A DNA stretch of 30,991 nucleotides from a virus, in IMG/VR virus record IMGVR_UViG_3300045988_126185, positions 1 to 30,991 of that record; one strand, 5' to 3'. Positions within the stretch are counted from its first letter, which is position 1. Every line of letters begins with the position of its first letter. Shown here piece by piece: positions 3,433 through 30,991 of the stretch. A program made the position numbers and the translations under genes. A model generated the notes under the pieces. The model did no database searches. It was not told where the DNA came from and was given only the letters and a program-made list of their open reading frames with translations.

Positions 3433-3639
3433 ATGGACGATAGAACAATAGAAGAAATTAGAAAAAATGAAACTAAACTTATAAATGAAATTAAAGTATT
3501 AGAACAACAATGTCAAAAACAAAAAGAAGTTATTGATAATATTAAAAAATGCTTTGATGATGGACATTTTGAAGATGATTGTGATTGTTTAATAATAGAA
3601 AAATATATAGATAATTATTTAAAAGAGGTATCAGAATGA
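3433..3639 (+). CDS. Hypothetical protein (68 aa).
   Basis: ORF with RBS AAGGAG. Confidence 0.4.
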   Translation: MDDRTIEEIRKNETKLINEIKVLEQQCQKQKEVIDNIKKCFDDGHFEDDCDCLIIEKYIDNYLKEVSE

Positions 3640-3968
3640 ACGATAAATGTAAATATTGTGATTATGTTTCTAAATGTTCAAGAATATGTGAATATAATAG
3701 TATTCTATGTAGAGCACAAAGGAGTTTTCCAAAAGTAGTAGATAAATCTTATGAACAATTAAAACAAGAAAACCAACAACTAAAAGATAATTGGAATACG
3801 TTAAAAGAATATATAAAAGAAACTAAATTAAAGGAATTTGAAAAATCGTATGGTAAAAGATATGGTAAAAGATATGGGAAAACATTTACTCAAGCAGAAG
3901 TAGTAGTGTGTAATATGATTTTAGGTAAAATGCAAAAAATAGAACAAGGAAGTGATAGCAATGAATAG
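3636..3968 (+). CDS. Hypothetical Cys-rich protein (putative zinc-binding N-terminus, CKYCDYVSKCSRICEY), with a KRYG tandem repeat.
   Basis: ORF; 12-nt tandem repeat tatggtaaaaga at about 3841-3880. Confidence 0.4.
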   Translation: MNDKCKYCDYVSKCSRICEYNSILCRAQRSFPKVVDKSYEQLKQENQQLKDNWNTLKEYIKETKLKEFEKSYGKRYGKRYGKTFTQAEVVVCNMILGKMQKIEQGSDSNE

Positions 3969-4660: not shown

Positions 4661-5041
4661 ATGAAATTAGAAATTGGGCAATTTGCTAGATTAAAAAGTG
4701 GTTATTCCGATGAATTAGGAATAGGTAAAATAGACTTTGTTGCTAATTGTGGAGTTGCAACAATAGATTTTAAAAATAAAAAATTAGGTGTATTTACTGA
4801 AGATATAATAAAAGTTAATTATAATATAATAGATTTAATTGAATTAGGAGATATTTTAGTTGATGACACAAATAGAAAATTAGAAGTTTTATCAATAGAT
4901 AATGAGTTAATGGTTAGAAATACAGGATTAATTTATGATAATAATTATTATTTACCGATAAAAAACATAGCAATTAAATCAGTCATAACACACGAGCAAA
5001 TGGAACAAATGGCTTATAAGGTAGGAGATGATAAAAAATAA
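4661..5041 (+). CDS. Hypothetical protein (126 aa).
   Basis: ORF with RBS AGGAG. Confidence 0.4.
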   Translation: MKLEIGQFARLKSGYSDELGIGKIDFVANCGVATIDFKNKKLGVFTEDIIKVNYNIIDLIELGDILVDDTNRKLEVLSIDNELMVRNTGLIYDNNYYLPIKNIAIKSVITHEQMEQMAYKVGDDKK

Positions 5042-5106
5042 TAAAATTATATTGTAAAAATATTTAAAATATATTATAATTTATTTAAGTTAGGAGGAAT
5101 TATAAT

Positions 5107-5799
5107 ATGGACAAAAAATCTTATTATGCTATAATACCAGCAAATGTAAGATATGATGATAATTTAAAAGATAAAGCTAAATTATTATATGGAGAAATAA
5201 CAGCTTTATGTAATGAAAAAGGATATTGTTGGGCAACAAATGAATATTTTGCTAATTTATACAATGTTAGCAAAACTACAATATCCACTTTGATTAAAAA
5301 TTTAATAGATAATGGATACATATATTCAAGTTTTATTTACAAAGAAAATTCAAAAGAAATTGATAAAAGAATATTAAGTATAACTAATGTACCCCCTTTA
5401 AAAAATTTTAAAGACCCCCTTAAAGAAAATTTAAAGACCCCTTTAAAAAATTTTAAAGACCCCCTTAAAGAAAATTTAAAGGATAATAATACAATTAATA
5501 ATACAATTAATAATAGTAATAGTTATTATTATATAGAAGAACAATTTGGAAGAACATTAGCACCTGTTGAATATACAAAAATTGATAAATGGAAAGAAAC
5601 TTTTTCAGATGATATTATTAATTATGCAACTGATATAGCTATATTAAATGGGGTTAAGAATTTTAATTATATTGATGGTATTATTAGAAACTGGAAAGAT
5701 AAAAATATAAAAAGCATTAAAGAATTAAAAAATGAAACTTTAATTGAAAAGTCAATAAAAAAAGAATTGTTTGATTACAATTGGTTAGAAGAAGAATAG
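5107..5799 (+). CDS. Replisome organizer or replication initiator (phage_rep_org_N-like wHTH N-terminus plus DnaD-like C-terminal domain).
   Basis: N-terminus YYAIIPANVRYD...LLYGEITALCNEKGYCWATNEYFANLYNVSKTTISTLIKNL. C-terminus DKWKETFSDDIINYATDIAI...NYIDGIIRNW is DnaD/DnaB_2-like. Internal direct repeats are present. Confidence 0.65.
   Translation: MDKKSYYAIIPANVRYDDNLKDKAKLLYGEITALCNEKGYCWATNEYFANLYNVSKTTISTLIKNLIDNGYIYSSFIYKENSKEIDKRILSITNVPPLKNFKDPLKENLKTPLKNFKDPLKENLKDNNTINNTINNSNSYYYIEEQFGRTLAPVEYTKIDKWKETFSDDIINYATDIAILNGVKNFNYIDGIIRNWKDKNIKSIKELKNETLIEKSIKKELFDYNWLEEE
5393..5481. repeat. Four tandem ~21-22-bp C-rich iterons (CCCC(C)TTTAAAAAATTTTAAAGAC alternating with CCCCTTAAAGAAAATTTAAAGAC) inside the replisome-organizer gene, followed by an AT-rich AATAATACAATTAAT x2 tract. 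Candidate origin of replication.
   Basis: Direct repeats read in the sequence. The poly-C runs are conspicuous in an AT-rich genome. Origins lie inside the initiator gene in lambda O and SPP1 gene 38. Confidence 0.5.
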
Positions 5800-7637: not shown

Positions 7638-8039
7638 ATGGAGTTTAAAATAGGAGAAAATTTAACAATATCACAATTACAAAGTGAAATAGATAAATTA
7701 TCAAATAAAGTAAGTAAAGAATATAACAATGTAATAAGCAATAGAGATAAAATAAATTATTTGAAAGAACAATTAAAAAAATTAAAAGAAGAAGAAAAGA
7801 ATAAACCAATTATTGATGAAACAGAAAAAAAATATTTAAAAGAAGTTATTAGACCATTTAAAGACAAAGTTGAATATATAAAAAAAATAATGAATCTTAA
7901 TAAAAGTAAAGAATATATATCTATAGGAATAGAATATGAACCATCTGTTGACCTCCCATATTTTGAAAAGAATAATATGTATGAAGGAATGGAAACAGGT
8001 AAGGAATATACATTAAAGGAGTTAGGTTTAGATGAATAA
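7638..8039 (+). CDS. Hypothetical protein (133 aa).
   Basis: ORF with RBS AGGAGG. Confidence 0.45.
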   Translation: MEFKIGENLTISQLQSEIDKLSNKVSKEYNNVISNRDKINYLKEQLKKLKEEEKNKPIIDETEKKYLKEVIRPFKDKVEYIKKIMNLNKSKEYISIGIEYEPSVDLPYFEKNNMYEGMETGKEYTLKELGLDE

Positions 8040-8445
8040 AGGAGTAATTGTTGGGAGATTAGTAAGAAATCCAGAATTAAGATATACAAGTTCAAATAAA
8101 GCAATTACAAAAATAACAATTGCTTGTAATAATTCAAAAGATGATACAACATTTTTAGATATAACAATATTTGGAAAAATGGCAGAAACAACTAACGAAT
8201 ATTGTCAAAAAGGAGATATTTTAGGAATAGAATACATAGTTAAAAATTACAATTGGGAAGATGAAGAAGGTAAAAGACACTTTACATATAATTTTATAGC
8301 TAATAGAGTAGAGTTTATATCAAAGGCTAGTAAATCTACTAACAAAGTAGAAATACCTCAAGAACAGGCTAAAAATAGTTTAAATAAAGATGTATTTGAT
8401 GAATTTGGAGATAGTGTTTCTATTGATGATAATTTTCTAGAATGA
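8032..8445 (+). CDS. ssb: Single-stranded DNA-binding protein with an acidic C-terminal tail.
   Basis: MNKGVIVGRLVRNPELRYT...ITIFGKMAE...KGD...; C-terminus ...DDNFLE matches the acidic SSB tail (DDDIPF-like). Confidence 0.7.
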   Translation: MNKGVIVGRLVRNPELRYTSSNKAITKITIACNNSKDDTTFLDITIFGKMAETTNEYCQKGDILGIEYIVKNYNWEDEEGKRHFTYNFIANRVEFISKASKSTNKVEIPQEQAKNSLNKDVFDEFGDSVSIDDNFLE

Positions 8446-11224: not shown

Positions 11225-11701
11225 ATGAAAAAAATAGAAATTAAATATATACCAATAGATGATATAAAACCTTATATAAATAACCCTAGATTAAATGAAG
11301 AGGCTATTCCTTATGTTATGAATAGTATAAAAGAGTTTGGATTTAAAAACCCTATTATATTAGATAAAAACAATGTAATAGTAGCAGGACATACTAGATT
11401 AGAAAGTGCTAAAAGACTTGATATGAAAGAAGTACCAGTTATTTATGCTGATGACTTAACTAAAGAACAAATAAAAGCATTTAGATTAGCAGATAATAAA
11501 GTTAGTGAAAAATCAATATGGGACTATACTAAGTTAGATGAAGAATTAGAAAATATTTTAGATATTGATATGAGCATGTTTGATTTTGAGAATATAGAAG
11601 AAACTAATTTAGATGATTTTTTTGAAGATAACGATAATAAAAAAGAAAAGGAGAGTAAACTTATAGAATGCCCTCATTGTCATAAGCCTATTGAACTGTG
11701 A
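11225..11701 (+). CDS. ParB-like nuclease domain protein (ParB N-terminal/sulfiredoxin fold); possible DpdB-like partner of DpdA.
   Basis: IPIDDIKPYINNPR...NPIILDKNNVIVAGHTRLESAKRL...LADN matches ParB N-terminal motifs. Overlap-coupled (GTGA) to the downstream TGT-like gene. Confidence 0.6.
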   Translation: MKKIEIKYIPIDDIKPYINNPRLNEEAIPYVMNSIKEFGFKNPIILDKNNVIVAGHTRLESAKRLDMKEVPVIYADDLTKEQIKAFRLADNKVSEKSIWDYTKLDEELENILDIDMSMFDFENIEETNLDDFFEDNDNKKEKESKLIECPHCHKPIEL

Positions 11702-12441
11702 AAGTATTTTTGGCTTCAACAAGTAGTAGAGAAAATATGGGAGAGAGTGAACTAAATAAAATTCCATATATTTTAGAAAGTTTTTATACAATAAAAAATG
11801 AAAGAACATTAAATAGAATAAAAAATATAAATAAAAAGAAATTTTTGTTAGACAGTGGAGCATTTACTTTTATGAATGGTCATAAAGGAAAAGTTGACTG
11901 GAATAAATACATAGAAGATTATGCAAAATTCATTAATAAATATAATATAAAATATTTTTTTGAATTAGATATAGATGTAGTTGTAGGTATTAAAGAAGTT
12001 GAAAGATTAAGAAAAAAGCTTGAAATGTTAACTCACAAACAATGCATCCCAGTATGGCATAAATCTAGAGGATTAGAATATTATAAAAGAATGTGTAAAG
12101 AGTATAATTATATAGCAATTGGTGGAATAGTTATAGGAGAAATAAAAAAACAAGATTATAAAGTGTTTATTCCATTATTAAAAATTGCTAAAGAAAATAA
12201 TTGCAAAGTACACGGATTAGGTTTCACGGTAACGAGAGAACTTAACAAGTATCACTTTTATAGTGTTGATAGTACAAATTGGTTGTCTGGTGGAAGATTT
12301 GGACAATTACATACATTTAATGGAAAGTTTATTGAAAGTAAAAGTTTTAAAAACAAAAGAGCAAAAGATTATAAGCAAATAGATAAACATAATTTAGAGC
12401 AATGGATAAAGTTTCAAAATTATGCAGATAAATATTTATAA
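11698..12441 (+). CDS. dpdA: TGT-like transglycosylase of the DpdA type (7-deazaguanine DNA base-exchange enzyme), lacking the Zn-binding C-terminus of tRNA TGT.
   Basis: LLDSGAFTF resembles TGT LTDSGGFQ (catalytic Asp). NYIAIGGIVIGE resembles TGT GYAIGGLSVGE. VHGLGFT resembles LMGVGTP. Short length, GTG start, and a preQ0/preQ1 transporter gene lies downstream. Confidence 0.6.
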   Translation: MKVFLASTSSRENMGESELNKIPYILESFYTIKNERTLNRIKNINKKKFLLDSGAFTFMNGHKGKVDWNKYIEDYAKFINKYNIKYFFELDIDVVVGIKEVERLRKKLEMLTHKQCIPVWHKSRGLEYYKRMCKEYNYIAIGGIVIGEIKKQDYKVFIPLLKIAKENNCKVHGLGFTVTRELNKYHFYSVDSTNWLSGGRFGQLHTFNGKFIESKSFKNKRAKDYKQIDKHNLEQWIKFQNYADKYL

Positions 12442-13863: not shown

Positions 13864-14241
13864 TAATGTGATGGAAAAAGTGTTTTACAATTTCCTTGCA
13901 TGCTATCTTTATAGGTAGCATAGAGTAGATAACAAATTACTACGGTGAGCTAGATAGCCGACTACATTATCTATTCTATGGTGTCTATAAGGCACTAGAA
14001 ATTCTTATTTTATTTGCTATACGAACTCTGAGAGGATAAGATAGTAAATAGCATTACCTTTAACAGGTAGTGTCTAATGATATATAAAAAGAGAGAAGTA
14101 AAGAGGTATCGTTCAAGAGTAATTAACTTGTTCGCTTTAGGAAATAGTTAGATAAGCCCTTGTATACTAACTTATAACAAGGTCAAACCTTTATATCATT
14201 AGACAGTATCTATTAAAGATACAAAGAAAGGAATTAAAATT
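13864..14241 (+). ncRNA. About 380-nt ORF-free, GC-richer structured region upstream of the packaging genes. Candidate long 5' leader, ribozyme-like RNA or degenerate group-I-like element.
   Basis: No ORF in any frame. Base composition is distinct from the flanks. It contains a GCCGACUACA (group I R-like) element and shares AAGGUCAAAC with the tape-measure intron. Confidence 0.3.
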
Positions 14242-14496: not shown

Positions 14497-14736
14497 ATGG
14501 AATTTATAAAACTAAGAGAAGATAGATACATGATTAAAAATAGTAATAATATTGTAGTATCTGAAAAAGAAAAGTTAGAATTAGAAAAAAAGAATTTAAT
14601 TATAGAAGATATTCAAAGCAATGAATGTCAAGGAAGAACAACACAAAGAATAAAAAAAATAGATAGGAAGTTGAAAAATGAAAGAAAACCAATTACAACT
14701 GAAACTATCGAAGAAACAACAGAACCTACTGAATGA
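14497..14736 (+). CDS. Hypothetical protein (79 aa); possible small terminase candidate by position.
   Basis: ORF with RBS AGGAGG, immediately upstream of and overlapping terL. Confidence 0.4.
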   Translation: MEFIKLREDRYMIKNSNNIVVSEKEKLELEKKNLIIEDIQSNECQGRTTQRIKKIDRKLKNERKPITTETIEETTEPTE

Positions 14737-16072
14737 TATAATATCTAAAGATATACCTGAAATATATGTATTAGGTAGTACCCAAAGTGGAAAGACTTAT
14801 GATATATGCTTTGCTTGTATAATGTATGCTCAGGAGCTTTATAAGTATAATCCTAATGAAAAATATTATGGAGCTATAATTGGCTGGAGTGTAACAACAT
14901 TAAAAGGGAACATAGTTGAAGTTATAAAAAATTTCCTTGAGTCAATGGGATTACAAAAAAAGAAAAATGGTAAAGGAGATTATGATTTACACTGGGGTGG
15001 AGATGATGACAAATATTTAGAAATATATAACATTAAATATTTGTTTTTTGGTTTTAACACCGTGTTATCATATAATAAAATATTAGGTAAACCATTAATA
15101 TTTGAATGGATAGATGAAAGTGCTAGGATATTTTCTTCTGCACAATTAAGAGAGAGCTTTAAAGAATTGCCTACAAGACAAATGAGCTATGTAACACATC
15201 CTTATTTAAAAACGATACATAGTTTTAATGTAGAGGGTAATGAAAACCATCCTTATAAAATTGAATATATTGACGGAAAACCTAAAGCAAAGCATTATAC
15301 TTTTTTCCCTTATGACAATCCTAAACTTGATACAGAAGAAGCTATGATAAAAGTAAAACAAATGTTCCCACAAGATAGTGCATTACAAAAACAAAAAATA
15401 TTTAACGAATGGTGCATAGCCGAAGGTAAAGTATTTGATAAATTAAATATAATAGATAGCTTAGATAATTTTGTTATACGTGAAATAGGATTAGGAAATG
15501 ACTATGGTAGTGTAAATCCTACAACATTCGTTCCAATAATGTTGACAATGAATAAATTAACTAAAAAATGGTGCTTAATAAGACTACCAGTTTATTATCA
15601 TAATCCTAAAGAATTAGGAGATACACCAACGACAGAGTTTTATAGTAATCAATTAAGAATGTTTATGGTTTATATAAAAAAGCAATTCCCACACGTTCCT
15701 TTAACTACAAATGTCATAGATAGTGAAGCTTCACATTTTGATAATAGATTAACCGTTGATAATATACAACACACGTTATCTGATAAAACCGACGGAGTTG
15801 ACGCAGGAGTACAACATTTGCAGTCTTTATGCGATAAAGAATACTTTTATATATTAAAAGGCAATAGTATAAAACAATTTACAAATGATGGAAAACCTAT
15901 TTATAGTGGTAAAGATGAAAGCTTAATTGAATTTGAAAGTTATCAATATGATAATGTAAGAAGTATTAAAGAGGGAACAAACTGTTATAAAAAAGAATTA
16001 GACCATAGTGTTGACGCAACACGTTATTTAATCAAAGAATGGGCAAATACTGGAAGATGTCCTATTGTATAG
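14678..16072 (+). CDS. terL: Terminase large subunit.
   Basis: Walker A GSTQSGKT. C-terminal nuclease motif DHSVDATRYL. N-terminal L..KQ..LL. Position upstream of portal. Confidence 0.8.
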   Translation: MKENQLQLKLSKKQQNLLNDIISKDIPEIYVLGSTQSGKTYDICFACIMYAQELYKYNPNEKYYGAIIGWSVTTLKGNIVEVIKNFLESMGLQKKKNGKGDYDLHWGGDDDKYLEIYNIKYLFFGFNTVLSYNKILGKPLIFEWIDESARIFSSAQLRESFKELPTRQMSYVTHPYLKTIHSFNVEGNENHPYKIEYIDGKPKAKHYTFFPYDNPKLDTEEAMIKVKQMFPQDSALQKQKIFNEWCIAEGKVFDKLNIIDSLDNFVIREIGLGNDYGSVNPTTFVPIMLTMNKLTKKWCLIRLPVYYHNPKELGDTPTTEFYSNQLRMFMVYIKKQFPHVPLTTNVIDSEASHFDNRLTVDNIQHTLSDKTDGVDAGVQHLQSLCDKEYFYILKGNSIKQFTNDGKPIYSGKDESLIEFESYQYDNVRSIKEGTNCYKKELDHSVDATRYLIKEWANTGRCPIV

Positions 16073-27498: not shown

Positions 27499-29406
27499 AT
27501 GACAAATGATTTTAAAAAAACTTTACTACAATATTTTACTGGTAATCTTGAAAAGGATACAGGTGTAACAAAAGAAATAATACAAAAAATAAGTTCTATA
27601 CCTTTAAGTGATTTTGATGGTTATTATGTTCCAAATAGCAAGCTAACAATACGTGGAATGGTAAGAGATAGTAGTAGTGGTAATGTTGTATTATATGGTG
27701 GATATGAAGATGGTAATATCTTAAAAGGTATAATAATAGTATTAAATCAAGATTTTAAACCTTTAAAAGTATTTTATAAATTTTCGAGTGGTACAGATTT
27801 AAGATATATCCATAGTATGAACCAAGATGAAAGTGGTAATTATTATTACATAGATAGTAATACCTTAGGGAGTACAACAGCCGAAAGAAGATTAGTTTTA
27901 GTAAATAATGTAAGTCAAAGTAGTAGTGTAACATTAAGAAAGACTTATTCTTTTCCAAGCGGATATAATGATTTTTATTGCTATAATGTATATAAAGATG
28001 TTAATAGTGCTAATTATGTTTTCGTTGGAACTAAACCACCAGATTATGACGATTTTAAAATAATATCCGTAAAAATAGATGTTGGTACAACTAATGAATG
28101 GAAACAATGGAATTCATCGGGTGGTTGGATATTAGGAGATAGTTTTGTTAATTTTGATAGTGATGGTAATTTATTTTGCGAAACTATTATAACACGTTCA
28201 ATGAATAACGCTAGCACTCTTAATGCTGTTTCAATTTGGAAAAAAGACTATACTAGCAATGATTTTACTCTATCTAATCTAAATATACCTTTTGACTACA
28301 AACCTTACATAGATAATGACAATTATCATAATCAAAGTGTATTTATTAATAAAGATGAAGTATATTTTGTTAGTACTAATCAGTCGATATTCTTACGTGA
28401 TGTTATAGAAAATAAATATATAGAATTATATTATTATAATTTAAGCACTAATGAATACAAGAAAATATATAGTAAATTTTTAGGGGAATATGTTGAATGT
28501 GATTTAGAAGCTATTTATTTAAACAAAAATCAAAATGATGTATATATTCAATATAATGTTATTCAAGATGGAACACCGATAGCAGATTATTACTTTCAAA
28601 GATACGTTGATAGATGGTTTCCGTTAAAAATAGCTGATAAACAACCGTTTTATCATGGAACAAGATTATTATATATAAATAACACTTATAACCTAGTCAA
28701 TGCTTATATGATTAGTACTACTTTTGATAGTTTATATTGGAGCGTTTATAATATTTTAGAAATATATAATAAAAATAACTTTAACGGAGAAACTTATATA
28801 AATACAAATAGTTTAATACCAAATTCAAGTGTTTTATATAATGAAAATAATGATGTTGTATTTGCAAGAAATTTATATAATAAAACTATAAGTGAAAGAA
28901 CAACACAAGCAACTTTAGAGATACCTAACAATTATTTAAACGATGTAATGATAGCCAAACAAAATTTAATAAGTGAAACTAATTTAACAATGGTAGAAAA
29001 TCAAAATACTGTTACTAAAAATGTTTATGAAACAGTTTATTTGAATTTTATCAATACATTACAAATGATTAATAATAATAATGAAGAAAATCCAATATTA
29101 AATTCAAATGGCGCAATAAGGTTAAATAACAGTATATCTAATCTTATAGATTATGATAATTCAAAAATAGGTAAAGCAAAAATAAATTTTGAAGATGGAA
29201 CAAGCTCTATTATTCCTATAGCATTCACACAAAATGGAAATGTTATGAGAACAGAGTTTACTATAACAGTTGATAAGAACATAACTAATATTCAATTATT
29301 GAGTAATGATGAAACTACAATTTATCAAACAATAGAAACTCAATTATCAATAAATAAAACATATACAATTTCCCAAGACGTAACAGTTGAGGGAGTTCAA
29401 TTATAA
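27499..29406 (+). CDS. Tail-associated / baseplate protein (Tal) or receptor-binding protein candidate.
   Basis: Position after Dit; 635 aa, Asn/Tyr-rich beta-type composition. Confidence 0.4.
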   Translation: MTNDFKKTLLQYFTGNLEKDTGVTKEIIQKISSIPLSDFDGYYVPNSKLTIRGMVRDSSSGNVVLYGGYEDGNILKGIIIVLNQDFKPLKVFYKFSSGTDLRYIHSMNQDESGNYYYIDSNTLGSTTAERRLVLVNNVSQSSSVTLRKTYSFPSGYNDFYCYNVYKDVNSANYVFVGTKPPDYDDFKIISVKIDVGTTNEWKQWNSSGGWILGDSFVNFDSDGNLFCETIITRSMNNASTLNAVSIWKKDYTSNDFTLSNLNIPFDYKPYIDNDNYHNQSVFINKDEVYFVSTNQSIFLRDVIENKYIELYYYNLSTNEYKKIYSKFLGEYVECDLEAIYLNKNQNDVYIQYNVIQDGTPIADYYFQRYVDRWFPLKIADKQPFYHGTRLLYINNTYNLVNAYMISTTFDSLYWSVYNILEIYNKNNFNGETYINTNSLIPNSSVLYNENNDVVFARNLYNKTISERTTQATLEIPNNYLNDVMIAKQNLISETNLTMVENQNTVTKNVYETVYLNFINTLQMINNNNEENPILNSNGAIRLNNSISNLIDYDNSKIGKAKINFEDGTSSIIPIAFTQNGNVMRTEFTITVDKNITNIQLLSNDETTIYQTIETQLSINKTYTISQDVTVEGVQL

Positions 29407-29444: not shown

Positions 29445-29451
29445 GGGGGGG
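29445..29451. repeat. G7 homopolymeric tract followed by a 7-bp hairpin (TGTGTTA/TAACACA) in the Tal-fibre intergenic region.
   Basis: Read directly; a poly-G run is unusual in this AT-rich genome. Confidence 0.5.
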
Positions 29452-29494
29452 TGTGTTATTTAATTAACACATTCTCCAAAAAGGAGAATGAAAT

Positions 29495-29971
29495 ATGGAT
29501 ATGATTACCTATGCCGATAAAATAGCATTGAATGAAAATCCTGAAATTCAAGAAAATAATAAAATAACAGCTGAAAATATGAATGAAATAAAAACCGTTG
29601 TAAACAATTTTATAAATGATGTTATTTCTAATAGAATACAACAAGATATTACAACAAACGGTAATCCTGTTAAATGCGGATATAAAATAGATAATAAAGA
29701 TGTGTATGTAAAGCGTTATTCAAGTCCGTTTAATGGACAAACAGCAACATTTGCTTATGGATTAGAAAATATAACTATTACAGATATTTCAGGTTATTAT
29801 GCTAATGCTAATTTCTCGTCGGTGTTCCCTTTACCATCAATAAGAACACAATTTGCAGATTATACAACTGAAATTTATATTGCTAATGGTAATGTAAATA
29901 TAAACACTGCTAATGTTGGAAGAGATGGATTTACGGCATACGTATATATATATTTTACATATAATGATTAA
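29495..29971 (+). CDS. Tail fibre / receptor-binding protein paralog 1.
   Basis: N-terminal domain MDMITYADKIALNENPEI...NMNEIKTVVN is paralogous to the next gene. Strong RBS. Confidence 0.45.
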   Translation: MDMITYADKIALNENPEIQENNKITAENMNEIKTVVNNFINDVISNRIQQDITTNGNPVKCGYKIDNKDVYVKRYSSPFNGQTATFAYGLENITITDISGYYANANFSSVFPLPSIRTQFADYTTEIYIANGNVNINTANVGRDGFTAYVYIYFTYND

Positions 29972-29987
29972 TTAAATAACAAATTTA

Positions 29988-30542
29988 ATGCAAATAACAT
30001 ATGAAGATAAAGTAGCATTGAATGAAAATACAGGAATTGCAGATATAAATAAAGTTAAAGCAGACGATATGAATATGATAAAAAGTGTTGTAAATGCTAA
30101 TCAAGAAGATGTAGGAGATATTTCAAATTTAAAAACAAAAGATATCACAAGTATAGTAAATGCTGCAAATGAAATAGAAGAGGAAAATTATTATTCTACT
30201 GAAGAAAAACAAATTGGAAAATGGATAGATAATAAACCTTTATATAGAAAAACATTTGTAATAGATGGTAATTCGTCACCACAACAACAAAGTTATCAAT
30301 TTGATTTAGCTTCATTAAACTGGGAAACAGTAACTTTAATATATGGAACTACTTATCAAGAAACAAACTCTTATTATAGAGATTTACATAATGCTTATGC
30401 TTATGATAGTACGGCAACTAATGAATATTCTGGAGCTTGGACTAGTGGTACTCTTTTACGTGTTCGTTCTCGTGGGATAGCAGTTACTAAATTCTACGTA
30501 ACTTTAGAATATACAAAAACAACTGATAGCCCTTCAAATTAA
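29988..30542 (+). CDS. Tail fibre / receptor-binding protein paralog 2.
   Basis: N-terminus MQITYEDKVALNENTGI...DMNMIKSVVN shares a domain with the upstream gene. The C-terminus is divergent. Confidence 0.45.
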   Translation: MQITYEDKVALNENTGIADINKVKADDMNMIKSVVNANQEDVGDISNLKTKDITSIVNAANEIEEENYYSTEEKQIGKWIDNKPLYRKTFVIDGNSSPQQQSYQFDLASLNWETVTLIYGTTYQETNSYYRDLHNAYAYDSTATNEYSGAWTSGTLLRVRSRGIAVTKFYVTLEYTKTTDSPSN

Positions 30543-30867: not shown

Positions 30868-30991
30868 ATGATAGATTTTATAAATAATAATTTAAACTTG
30901 ATATTAAGTATATTAGGAACAATTTTAACTGCTGTTGGTGGTTATATAGCTAAATTATATAAAAAGTATATAAATGATAAACAAAAAAAAC
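30868..30991 (+). CDS. Holin, 5' portion (continues at window base 120 via the terminal repeat).
   Basis: ATG at 30868 with RBS AGGAGG. Its sequence from 30873 onward is identical to window 1-119, which continues in frame to the stop at 319. Confidence 0.6.
   Translation, partial: MIDFINNNLNLILSILGTILTAVGGYIAKLYKKYINDKQKK

Follow-up and report, generated by a model that had tools for sequence, protein, structure and literature searches.

Analysis of the phage genome held in the IMG/VR record IMGVR_UViG_3300045988_126185 revealed a replication initiator gene that carries, between the coding regions of its two domains, a tandem array of four repeats with cytosine-rich heads followed by an AT-rich tract. 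The stretch analyzed, referred to here as the window, comprises positions 1 to 30,991 of this record. Bases 1 to 119 recur exactly at 30873 to 30991, and these identical 119-base ends indicate that the genome is complete, either circularly assembled or terminally redundant, with a length of 30,872 bp (~30.87 kb) and a GC content of 25%. The + strand carries all genes of the window. Judged from its sequence features, the segment 5391 to 5540 is probably the origin of theta-type replication of this phage, located inside the linker-coding part of the phage's own initiator gene. The features of the locus are as follows.

5028..5093, + strand: AT-rich intergenic tandem repeat in the promoter region upstream of the initiator gene
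5107..5799, + strand: replication initiator (replisome organizer) gene, 230 amino acids (aa), assigned by open reading frame (ORF), Pfam, PHROG, and hhalign analysis; holds the candidate origin
5140..5379, + strand: N-terminal winged-helix DNA-binding domain, aa 12 to 91 (AlphaFold2, Foldseek); putative iteron-binding module
5391..5413, + strand: iteron 1 (type A), ACCCCCTTTAAAAAATTTTAAAG
5414..5436, + strand: iteron 2 (type B), ACCCCCTTAAAGAAAATTTAAAG
5437..5458, + strand: iteron 3 (type A), ACCCCTTTAAAAAATTTTAAAG
5459..5481, + strand: iteron 4 (type B), ACCCCCTTAAAGAAAATTTAAAG
5482..5540, + strand: AT-rich tract, candidate DNA-unwinding element, GAT AAT AAT ACA ATT AAT AAT ACA ATT AAT AAT AGT AAT AGT TAT TAT TAT ATA ...
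5521..5772, + strand: C-terminal DnaD-like helical domain, aa 139 to 222 (Pfam DnaB_2, PDB, Foldseek, AlphaFold2)

The repeat was initially recognized by a model from the sequence alone (the original prediction), which described alternating units of about 21 bp occurring four times. Tandem Repeats Finder reported the region 5393 to 5481 as 2.0 copies of a 45-bp unit with 100% identity and a score of 178 and, as an alternative period starting from 5391, 4.0 copies of a 23-bp unit at 86%. The alternation and the number of units were thus borne out, and the unit length was corrected to 23 and 22 bp, alternating. A scan with the degenerate 21-mer of the unit, allowing up to three mismatches, returned the four array sites and no others on either strand of the window, compared with a mean of 0.08 sites in shuffled sequence, in which four sites were never reached; the four-unit repeat inside the initiator gene is therefore real. 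No second iteron set was found elsewhere in the window. The consensus unit is CTTTAAAAAATTTTAAAG, and each A unit contains CTTTAAAAA/ATTTTAAAG, a palindrome at 8 of 9 positions. The poly-C runs had been called compositionally anomalous, which proved to be an understatement: CCCC occurs on the + strand of the 30,991 bases only in the four unit heads. Translated in frame, the array reads PPLKNFKD PLKENLKT PLKNFKD PLKENLK, followed by DNNTINNTINNSNS; the heptapeptides PLKNFKD and PLKENLK had been placed in the initiator linker, in agreement with this translation and with the low model confidence at residues 96 to 136 (see below). A search for the exact B iteron gave no match in IMG/VR. The same search in metagenome contigs gave three unrelated single matches, one of them within a gene encoding ...FFPLKENLKNPVL..., which were set aside as chance occurrences.

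The predicted AT-rich repeat directly after the iterons was recovered as an exact 12-bp unit, TAATAATACAAT, present in 2.7 copies (100%) at 5484 to 5515. The 12-mer alone is statistically ordinary for such an AT-rich genome. The tract 5482 to 5535 has a GC content of 9% and ranks among the window's three weakest 54-mers by nearest-neighbor duplex stability, with only 0.06% of the window's 54-mers being as weak or weaker.

The domain matches of the protein confirmed the earlier designation of the gene as encoding a replisome organizer. The Pfam scan of the initiator (E values up to 0.01) revealed an HTH_36 match at aa 19 to 72 (58.3 bits versus a cut-off of 25) and a DnaB_2/DnaD match at aa 141 to 210 (68.9 bits), the latter also recognized as TIGR01446 (DnaD_dom). 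The PHROG matches, phrog_186 and phrog_19658, are annotated as DnaD-like helicase loader/replication initiation protein, and a weak match to the "replication initiation O-like" family (phrog_678, E value of 2.5e-10) was also obtained. The PDB sequence matches are DnaD structures (8ojj, 2zc2, and 2i5u). An AlphaFold2 model of the initiator was built from 50 homologues. In this model, the N-terminal domain forms a winged helix with helices at 12 to 15, 22 to 34, 45 to 52, and 56 to 68 and a beta hairpin at 73 to 78/85 to 91, at block-mean predicted local distance difference test (pLDDT) values of ~79 to 95. Foldseek comparison revealed that this domain resembles winged-helix regulators and the N-terminal initiator structures 4pt7, 5kbj, and 4pql (template-modeling [TM] score of ~0.46 to 0.49 normalized to the target, E value of ~5e-3), which we take to be staphylococcal RepA structures. 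The C-terminal domain has a block-mean pLDDT of ~90 to 93 at residues 141 to 200, with lower values toward the C terminus; it superposes on the DnaD-like structure 2zc2 with a TM score of 0.83 normalized to the target, and the whole model matches DnaD as well. This domain presumably recruits the host helicase-loading machinery. Values of pLDDT below 50 are limited to residues 1 to 3 and 96 to 136, and the model thus predicts a disordered interdomain linker at residues 96 to 136. The iterons specify aa 96 to 125 of the linker, and the AT tract its part from aa 126 onward.

One competing explanation is that the repeat is a low-complexity peptide linker grown by replication slippage, the DNA being merely coding. 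The region does encode a predicted disordered linker, a recent 45-bp duplication would by itself account for the two exact copies, and homologues share the peptide motifs PxKENL and DNNTxxNNT. The codons used in the array speak against this explanation. CCC encodes three of the five prolines in the array but only 2 of the 208 prolines elsewhere (1%). Further codons that are rare in this genome are systematically favored in the array, namely, ACC (4%), GAC (17%), CTT (8%), and AAG (13%); these are chosen to build the ACCCC head and to keep the units alike, and the confinement of + strand CCCC to the array likewise argues against mere coding. The A and B units begin at different codon positions, and the reading frame is therefore kept only by the 45-bp double unit.

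The same constraint was found in relatives. Among 46 distinct related loci, 63% of the linker proline codons are CCT, compared with 28% in the background, and the codon preceding a linker proline ends in C in 59% of cases, compared with 20% in the background. A bias toward C-CCT that recurs over 46 loci is not accounted for by slippage of a peptide linker. In one relative (L113), the 23-bp unit ACGATTAACAAAAATGTTAATCG is present in 2.9 copies at 2634 to 2699, and the copies are read in three frames (RLTKMLI/DDYQNCES/TINKNVK), so that this array is a DNA repeat without a peptide repeat.

The layout of the array was then surveyed in a set of 95 related loci, all distinct, taken from viral contigs, genomes, and phage records. 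A tandem array is present at the equivalent position of the gene in 67 of the 95 loci. The most frequent periods are 24 bp (21 loci), 23 bp (20 loci), 22 bp (10 loci), and 45/46 bp (6 loci), and about half of the periods are not multiples of three; the 22/23-bp periods, being common, are a further point against a repeat that exists for the sake of its peptide. A period of ~22 to 24 bp is typical of classical plasmid iterons. The consensus unit consists of a run of four to six C or G followed by a short palindrome around an A-tract, as in the units TGACAAAAATGTCA, TAGACAAAAATGTCTA, TTAACAAAAATGTTAA, and TGCCAAAATTGGCA of different relatives. In 59 of 62 loci, a tract of low GC content comes after the array (mean of 17.8% versus 35.1% for the locus), and the motif AATAATA does so in 53 of 62. 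The tract is preserved in GC-rich relatives, in which it has 33% GC versus 56%. Asparagine codons of the tract are AAT in 80% of cases, versus 48% in the background, in GC-rich loci (Fisher P = 3e-4) and in 97%, versus 69%, in the remaining loci; this preference for AAT over AAC even in GC-rich genomes would not be expected of a linker selected as peptide. In L024, L029, L070, L076, and L080, with GC contents of 56 to 58%, G-run or C-run heads (GGGGGT and ACCCCC) and an AATAATA-type tract are kept against the genomic composition. In addition, the Rep protein of pSK41, an analogous initiator, can do without its linker peptide (PMC5703833). The synonymous codon choice, the nontriplet periods in relatives, and the conservation of both array and AT tract throughout the family show that selection acts on the DNA of the array. 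It is the DNA that determines the linker peptide (PLKNFKD/PLKENLK from the iterons, then NNTINNT), and the peptide repeat is incidental. An origin of the array purely as a slippage-grown linker is accordingly very improbable.

The palindromes in the A units raise another explanation, in which the near-palindromic units adopt hairpin or cruciform structures in single-stranded DNA (ssDNA) or mRNA and act as a single-strand initiation signal or an RNA element rather than as duplex iterons. Folded as ssDNA, 5385 to 5545 reaches -15.7 kcal/mol, compared with -7.1 ± 1.9 kcal/mol for shuffled sequences (z = -4.6), and each A unit carries the 8/9 palindrome described above. This better-than-shuffle folding results from the near-palindromic units, and a palindromic binding site, once repeated, automatically gives pairing between its copies as a by-product. 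The predicted pairs are nearly all A-T, the minimum free energy structure has an ensemble frequency of 0.0007, and the centroid structure reaches only -6.7 kcal/mol. Relatives keep the period and the order of head and palindrome, not the long-range pairing. A role of the units as hairpins is thus highly unlikely, and the array is better described as a set of duplex iterons at a probable origin.

Comparison of individual relatives pointed to the domain that reads the iterons. In P0060/L113, the C-terminal domain is nearly identical to that of the window protein; the N-terminal domain is divergent, and the iteron is different. Conversely, P0044 and L004 share an N-terminal domain ~70% identical to that of the window protein and have an unrelated C-terminal domain of the Phg_2220_C type. 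P0044 retains the PIKENL peptide repeat, and L004 retains the near-identical DNA core TTAAAGAAAAC/TTTAAA. These natural domain swaps suggest that the type of iteron follows the N-terminal winged helix, not the C-terminal domain, and that the N-terminal HTH_36 domain is the likely iteron-binding module.

Searching for characterized relatives revealed ORF13 of Lactococcus phage TP901-1, which is homologous across both domains (hhalign probability of 98.4%, E value of 8e-15 over 207 columns, for the 50-sequence family alignment against ORF13; pairwise BLASTP E value of 5e-4 with the window protein). TP901-1 ORF13 likewise contains both Pfam domains, HTH_36 (24.5 bits) and DnaB_2, and has direct repeats of its own and an AT/Asn-rich tract at the aligned interdomain position. 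The gene neighborhood is similar, with a single-strand annealing protein and an SSB (single-stranded DNA-binding protein) encoded beside the initiator, and the RefSeq record of TP901-1 labels ORF13 "replication protein, experimental." According to a 2022 paper summarizing the primary work, the direct repeats inside the genes for TP901-1 ORF13 and Tuc2009 Rep2009 are bound by the respective gene products and function as ori, and in both cases phage-encoded resistance is conferred in trans (PMC8965321). With its HTH_36 and DnaD/DnaB_2 domains, its homology to ORF13, and its interdomain repeats followed by an AT tract, the window protein probably belongs to the TP901-1 ORF13 type. A further HTH_36 homologue is BK5-T ORF49, in which a repeat_region is annotated at the same place; its units, 23 bp long with heads that alternate between C and G, precede GATAAT... 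and are unrelated in sequence to the window iterons. TP901-1 ORF13 and BK5-T ORF49 also have homologues in P335 and ul36. Rep2009 of Lactococcus phage Tuc2009 has the same layout, with repeats in the middle of a gene that, according to RefSeq, "contains origin of replication," but it belongs to another protein family (Phage_rep_org_N/Rep_Org_C) with no HTH_36 or DnaB_2 match and no significant BLASTP similarity to the window protein.

The arrangement was also compared with more distant systems. In staphylococcal plasmids of the pSK41 type, the N-terminal winged helix of Rep binds four Rep boxes located in the middle of the gene, the linker encoded by ori is dispensable as protein, the DnaD-like C-terminal domain makes contact with proteins of the host primosome, and the two domains are both similar to DnaD (PMC5703833). 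The central ori encoding a linker is shared with the window gene as an analogy of layout only; the pSK41 type differs in being a plasmid, not a phage, and the C-terminal domain of the window protein is a canonical DnaD/DnaB_2 domain by sequence. Antisense-RNA control of copy number, as known from the staphylococcal plasmids, was not seen in the window, although no search aimed at it was made. RepA_N (pfam06970) gave no match in the Pfam scan of the initiator, so that the resemblance to this type is limited to the fold. In pPR9, a phage-type N-terminal domain (pfam13730, HTH_36) has been swapped in together with the origin region, and autonomous replication is supported (review, PMC5703833). 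The N-terminal domain of the pPR9 initiator belongs to the same Pfam family as that of the window protein. A search of plasmids for a pPR9-like initiator returned mostly phage-like "plasmids," and one candidate, H124, turned out to be a phage-type module.

The original prediction had compared the layout to lambda ori and SPP1 oriL. In lambda, direct repeats along with an AT-rich unwinding element are located inside the O gene, and the O protein binds the repeats. In Bacillus phage SPP1, the oriL direct repeats, which lie within gene 38 beside an AT-rich unwinding element, are binding sites of gp38 (PMC6316719). Intragenic repeats and an AT element are thus common to both phages and to the window, and this part of the comparison stands, although only as an analogy; the actual relatives of the window system are TP901-1 ORF13, BK5-T ORF49, and other HTH_36 initiators. 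Both SPP1 and lambda have a loader gene of their own, and SPP1 has a helicase gene as well, whereas neither gene was found among the scanned ORFs of the window phage. SPP1 has a second origin, oriR, in contrast to the window with its single iteron set. The initiator is not of the lambda O type, as the Pfam scan detected no O-type domain in it and no loader was present among the scanned ORFs. Lactobacillus phage A2, considered as a possible comparator, was dropped because its annotated rep_origin is located downstream of a primase gene, in a different replication module.

Several observations weigh against the assignment of the origin to 5391 to 5540 or against parts of it. The identity to TP901-1 ORF13 is only ~20 to 22%, and the TP901-1 repeats have a period of ~15 bp and a sequence unrelated to that of the window iterons. 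The close relatives (P0002 contigs L058 to L063) are ~98 to 99% identical, and the two differences found in their array region are both nonsynonymous and located at unit junctions; as these contigs are only ~1 to 2% diverged, the comparison has no power as a test of conservation. Over 63 loci, a Mantel-type matrix correlation of iteron similarity with domain identity gave r = 0.23 when the N-terminal domain was compared and r = 0.20 when the C-terminal domain was used. This correlation does not separate the domains, and the pairing of iteron and winged helix is therefore based on the individual swap cases. GC and AT skews across the window are positive throughout and give no origin signal, and they are uninformative because every gene is encoded on the + strand. 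Finally, the least stable duplex of the entire window is not the iteron-adjacent tract but the intergenic region 5028 to 5093, which could be the melting site instead. This region contains repeats of 10, 11, and 22 bp (Tandem Repeats Finder arrays at 5032 to 5088) and promoter-like hexamers at 5052 to 5080. It is possibly an auxiliary, easily melted region, although its role is uncertain. A promoter scan found no more sites than in shuffled sequences, and no terminator was found.

The low stability of 5028 to 5093, together with its own AT-rich tandem repeats, is also a feature in favor of an explanation in which the iterons bind the initiator or another phage protein for regulation, as an autoregulatory roadblock or by titration, or serve partition or packaging, with the origin lying elsewhere, e.g., at 5028 to 5093. 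Iteron-plasmid initiators that bind iterons commonly also autoregulate. Moreover, a ParB-like protein is encoded at 11225 to 11701. These points are opposed by the distribution of the array: together with the AT tract, it accompanies the HTH_36 domain through many unrelated genome contexts and is found only inside the initiator gene. Neither the vicinity of any promoter nor any other part of the genome holds a copy of the iteron. Intragenic repeats are reported to be the origin in the homologous TP901-1 system and also in Tuc2009 (PMC8965321), and they are the origin in SPP1 and pSK41 as well. A purely regulatory, partition, or packaging role is rather unlikely on this evidence, and it is less improbable than either the linker or the hairpin explanation.

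For the segment 5391 to 5540 as the probable origin, the following sequence of events is proposed. The winged-helix HTH_36 domain would bind the four 22/23-bp iterons, each composed of a head of four or five C and a near-palindromic core around an A-tract. Because the sites are about two helical turns apart, initiator molecules would assemble side by side, oligomerize on the iterons, and bend the DNA. Bending would strain and open the neighboring unstable AT tract at 5482 to 5540. The DnaD-like domain would bring in host helicase-loading proteins; in Firmicutes, these are DnaB/DnaI, along with the helicase DnaC and the primase DnaG. We infer that binding, melting, and host factor recruitment take place in this phage along these lines. 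The ~28 of the larger ORFs of the window that were scanned encode, e.g., an Erf annealing protein, an exonuclease, two SSBs, NinB, an HNH protein, a ParB-like nuclease, and a Holliday junction resolvase. PHROG and Pfam scans of these ORFs detected no helicase, loader, primase, or polymerase, so that host replication factors would be needed. The DnaA box TTATCCACA, searched with up to one mismatch, occurs at five sites of the window, which is below chance, and none of these sites is less than 3 kb from the candidate origin; a cluster of DnaA boxes beside an unwinding element, as in a DnaA-dependent origin, is thus absent. The search for the host by matches to genome contigs gave no assignment, as the best matches were at most 59% identical over the N-terminal domain and came from Clostridium and Enterococcus metagenome-assembled genomes.

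The codon bias, the conservation in the family, the position in the linker, and the homology to TP901-1 ORF13 all support the candidate origin that had been predicted. These results narrow the probable replication origin of an uncultivated phage to a 150-bp stretch and name the domain that likely reads it. They also provide a clear case of a function at the DNA level that overrides codon choice within a gene. An intragenic iteron origin is a known arrangement, of which this phage is an ordinary further example; a specialist would not be surprised, since decades of work have established the mechanism in lambda, SPP1, TP901-1, Tuc2009, and pSK41-type plasmids. The survey of array periods, codon bias, and AT box can serve as a practical rule for annotating origins in phages with an HTH_36 initiator. 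Its most reusable result is the combination of a 22- to 24-bp period, a C/G head, an A-tract palindrome, and an AATAATA box, which is retained even in GC-rich genomes.

A broader proposal would extend this pattern to the entire HTH_36 initiator superfamily, whose members come from Firmicutes phages and prophages and from contigs that were binned with Candidate Phyla Radiation (CPR) bacteria, Campylobacteraceae, and Bacteroidota. All members would share one origin grammar, consisting of two to five units of 22 to 24 bp with a C4-6/G4-6 head and an A-tract palindrome (e.g., TGACAAAAATGTCA, TTAACAAAAATGTTAA, and TTAAAGAAAATTTAAA) and a AATAATAC-type box at a fixed distance, and conserved parts of the initiator would read head and box. 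We regard this proposal as doubtful, if slightly less so than the regulatory explanation above. If true, origins and initiator specificity could be read from the sequence in thousands of uncultivated phages. The AATAATAC box might, beyond mere AT-richness, resemble DnaA-trios in being a defined element for single-strand binding or for melting.

Further features were noted in the window outside the initiator gene. The two SSB-like genes are located at 1637 to 1933 (98 aa, far from the replication module) and at 8032 to 8445, and the second SSB is shortened in some close relatives (88 aa in L059 and 62 aa in L060). The ParB-like nuclease gene at 11225 to 11701 and a queuine tRNA-ribosyltransferase-like gene at 11698 to 12441 (phrog_887, E value of 9e-60) overlap at the start of the latter, a gene pair that may point to 7-deazaguanine modification of the phage DNA. 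An inverted repeat with arms at 14055 to 14084 and 14192 to 14221 (30 nucleotides [nt], 87% complementary, arms 107 nt apart) is located in the gap upstream of the terminase region at 14678 to 16072 and is possibly a packaging or regulatory site. A run of seven G is present at 29446 to 29452, within a 14-codon mini-ORF in the gap between the genes at 27499 to 29406 and 29495 to 29971. A direct repeat of 101 nt with 76% identity (29504 to 29604/29994 to 30094) indicates that the adjacent genes at 29495 to 29971 and 29988 to 30542 are paralogous. A 12-bp repeat, TATGGTAAAAGA, present in 2.8 copies at 3849 to 3882 inside the ORF at 3636 to 3968, encodes YGKRYGKRYGK.

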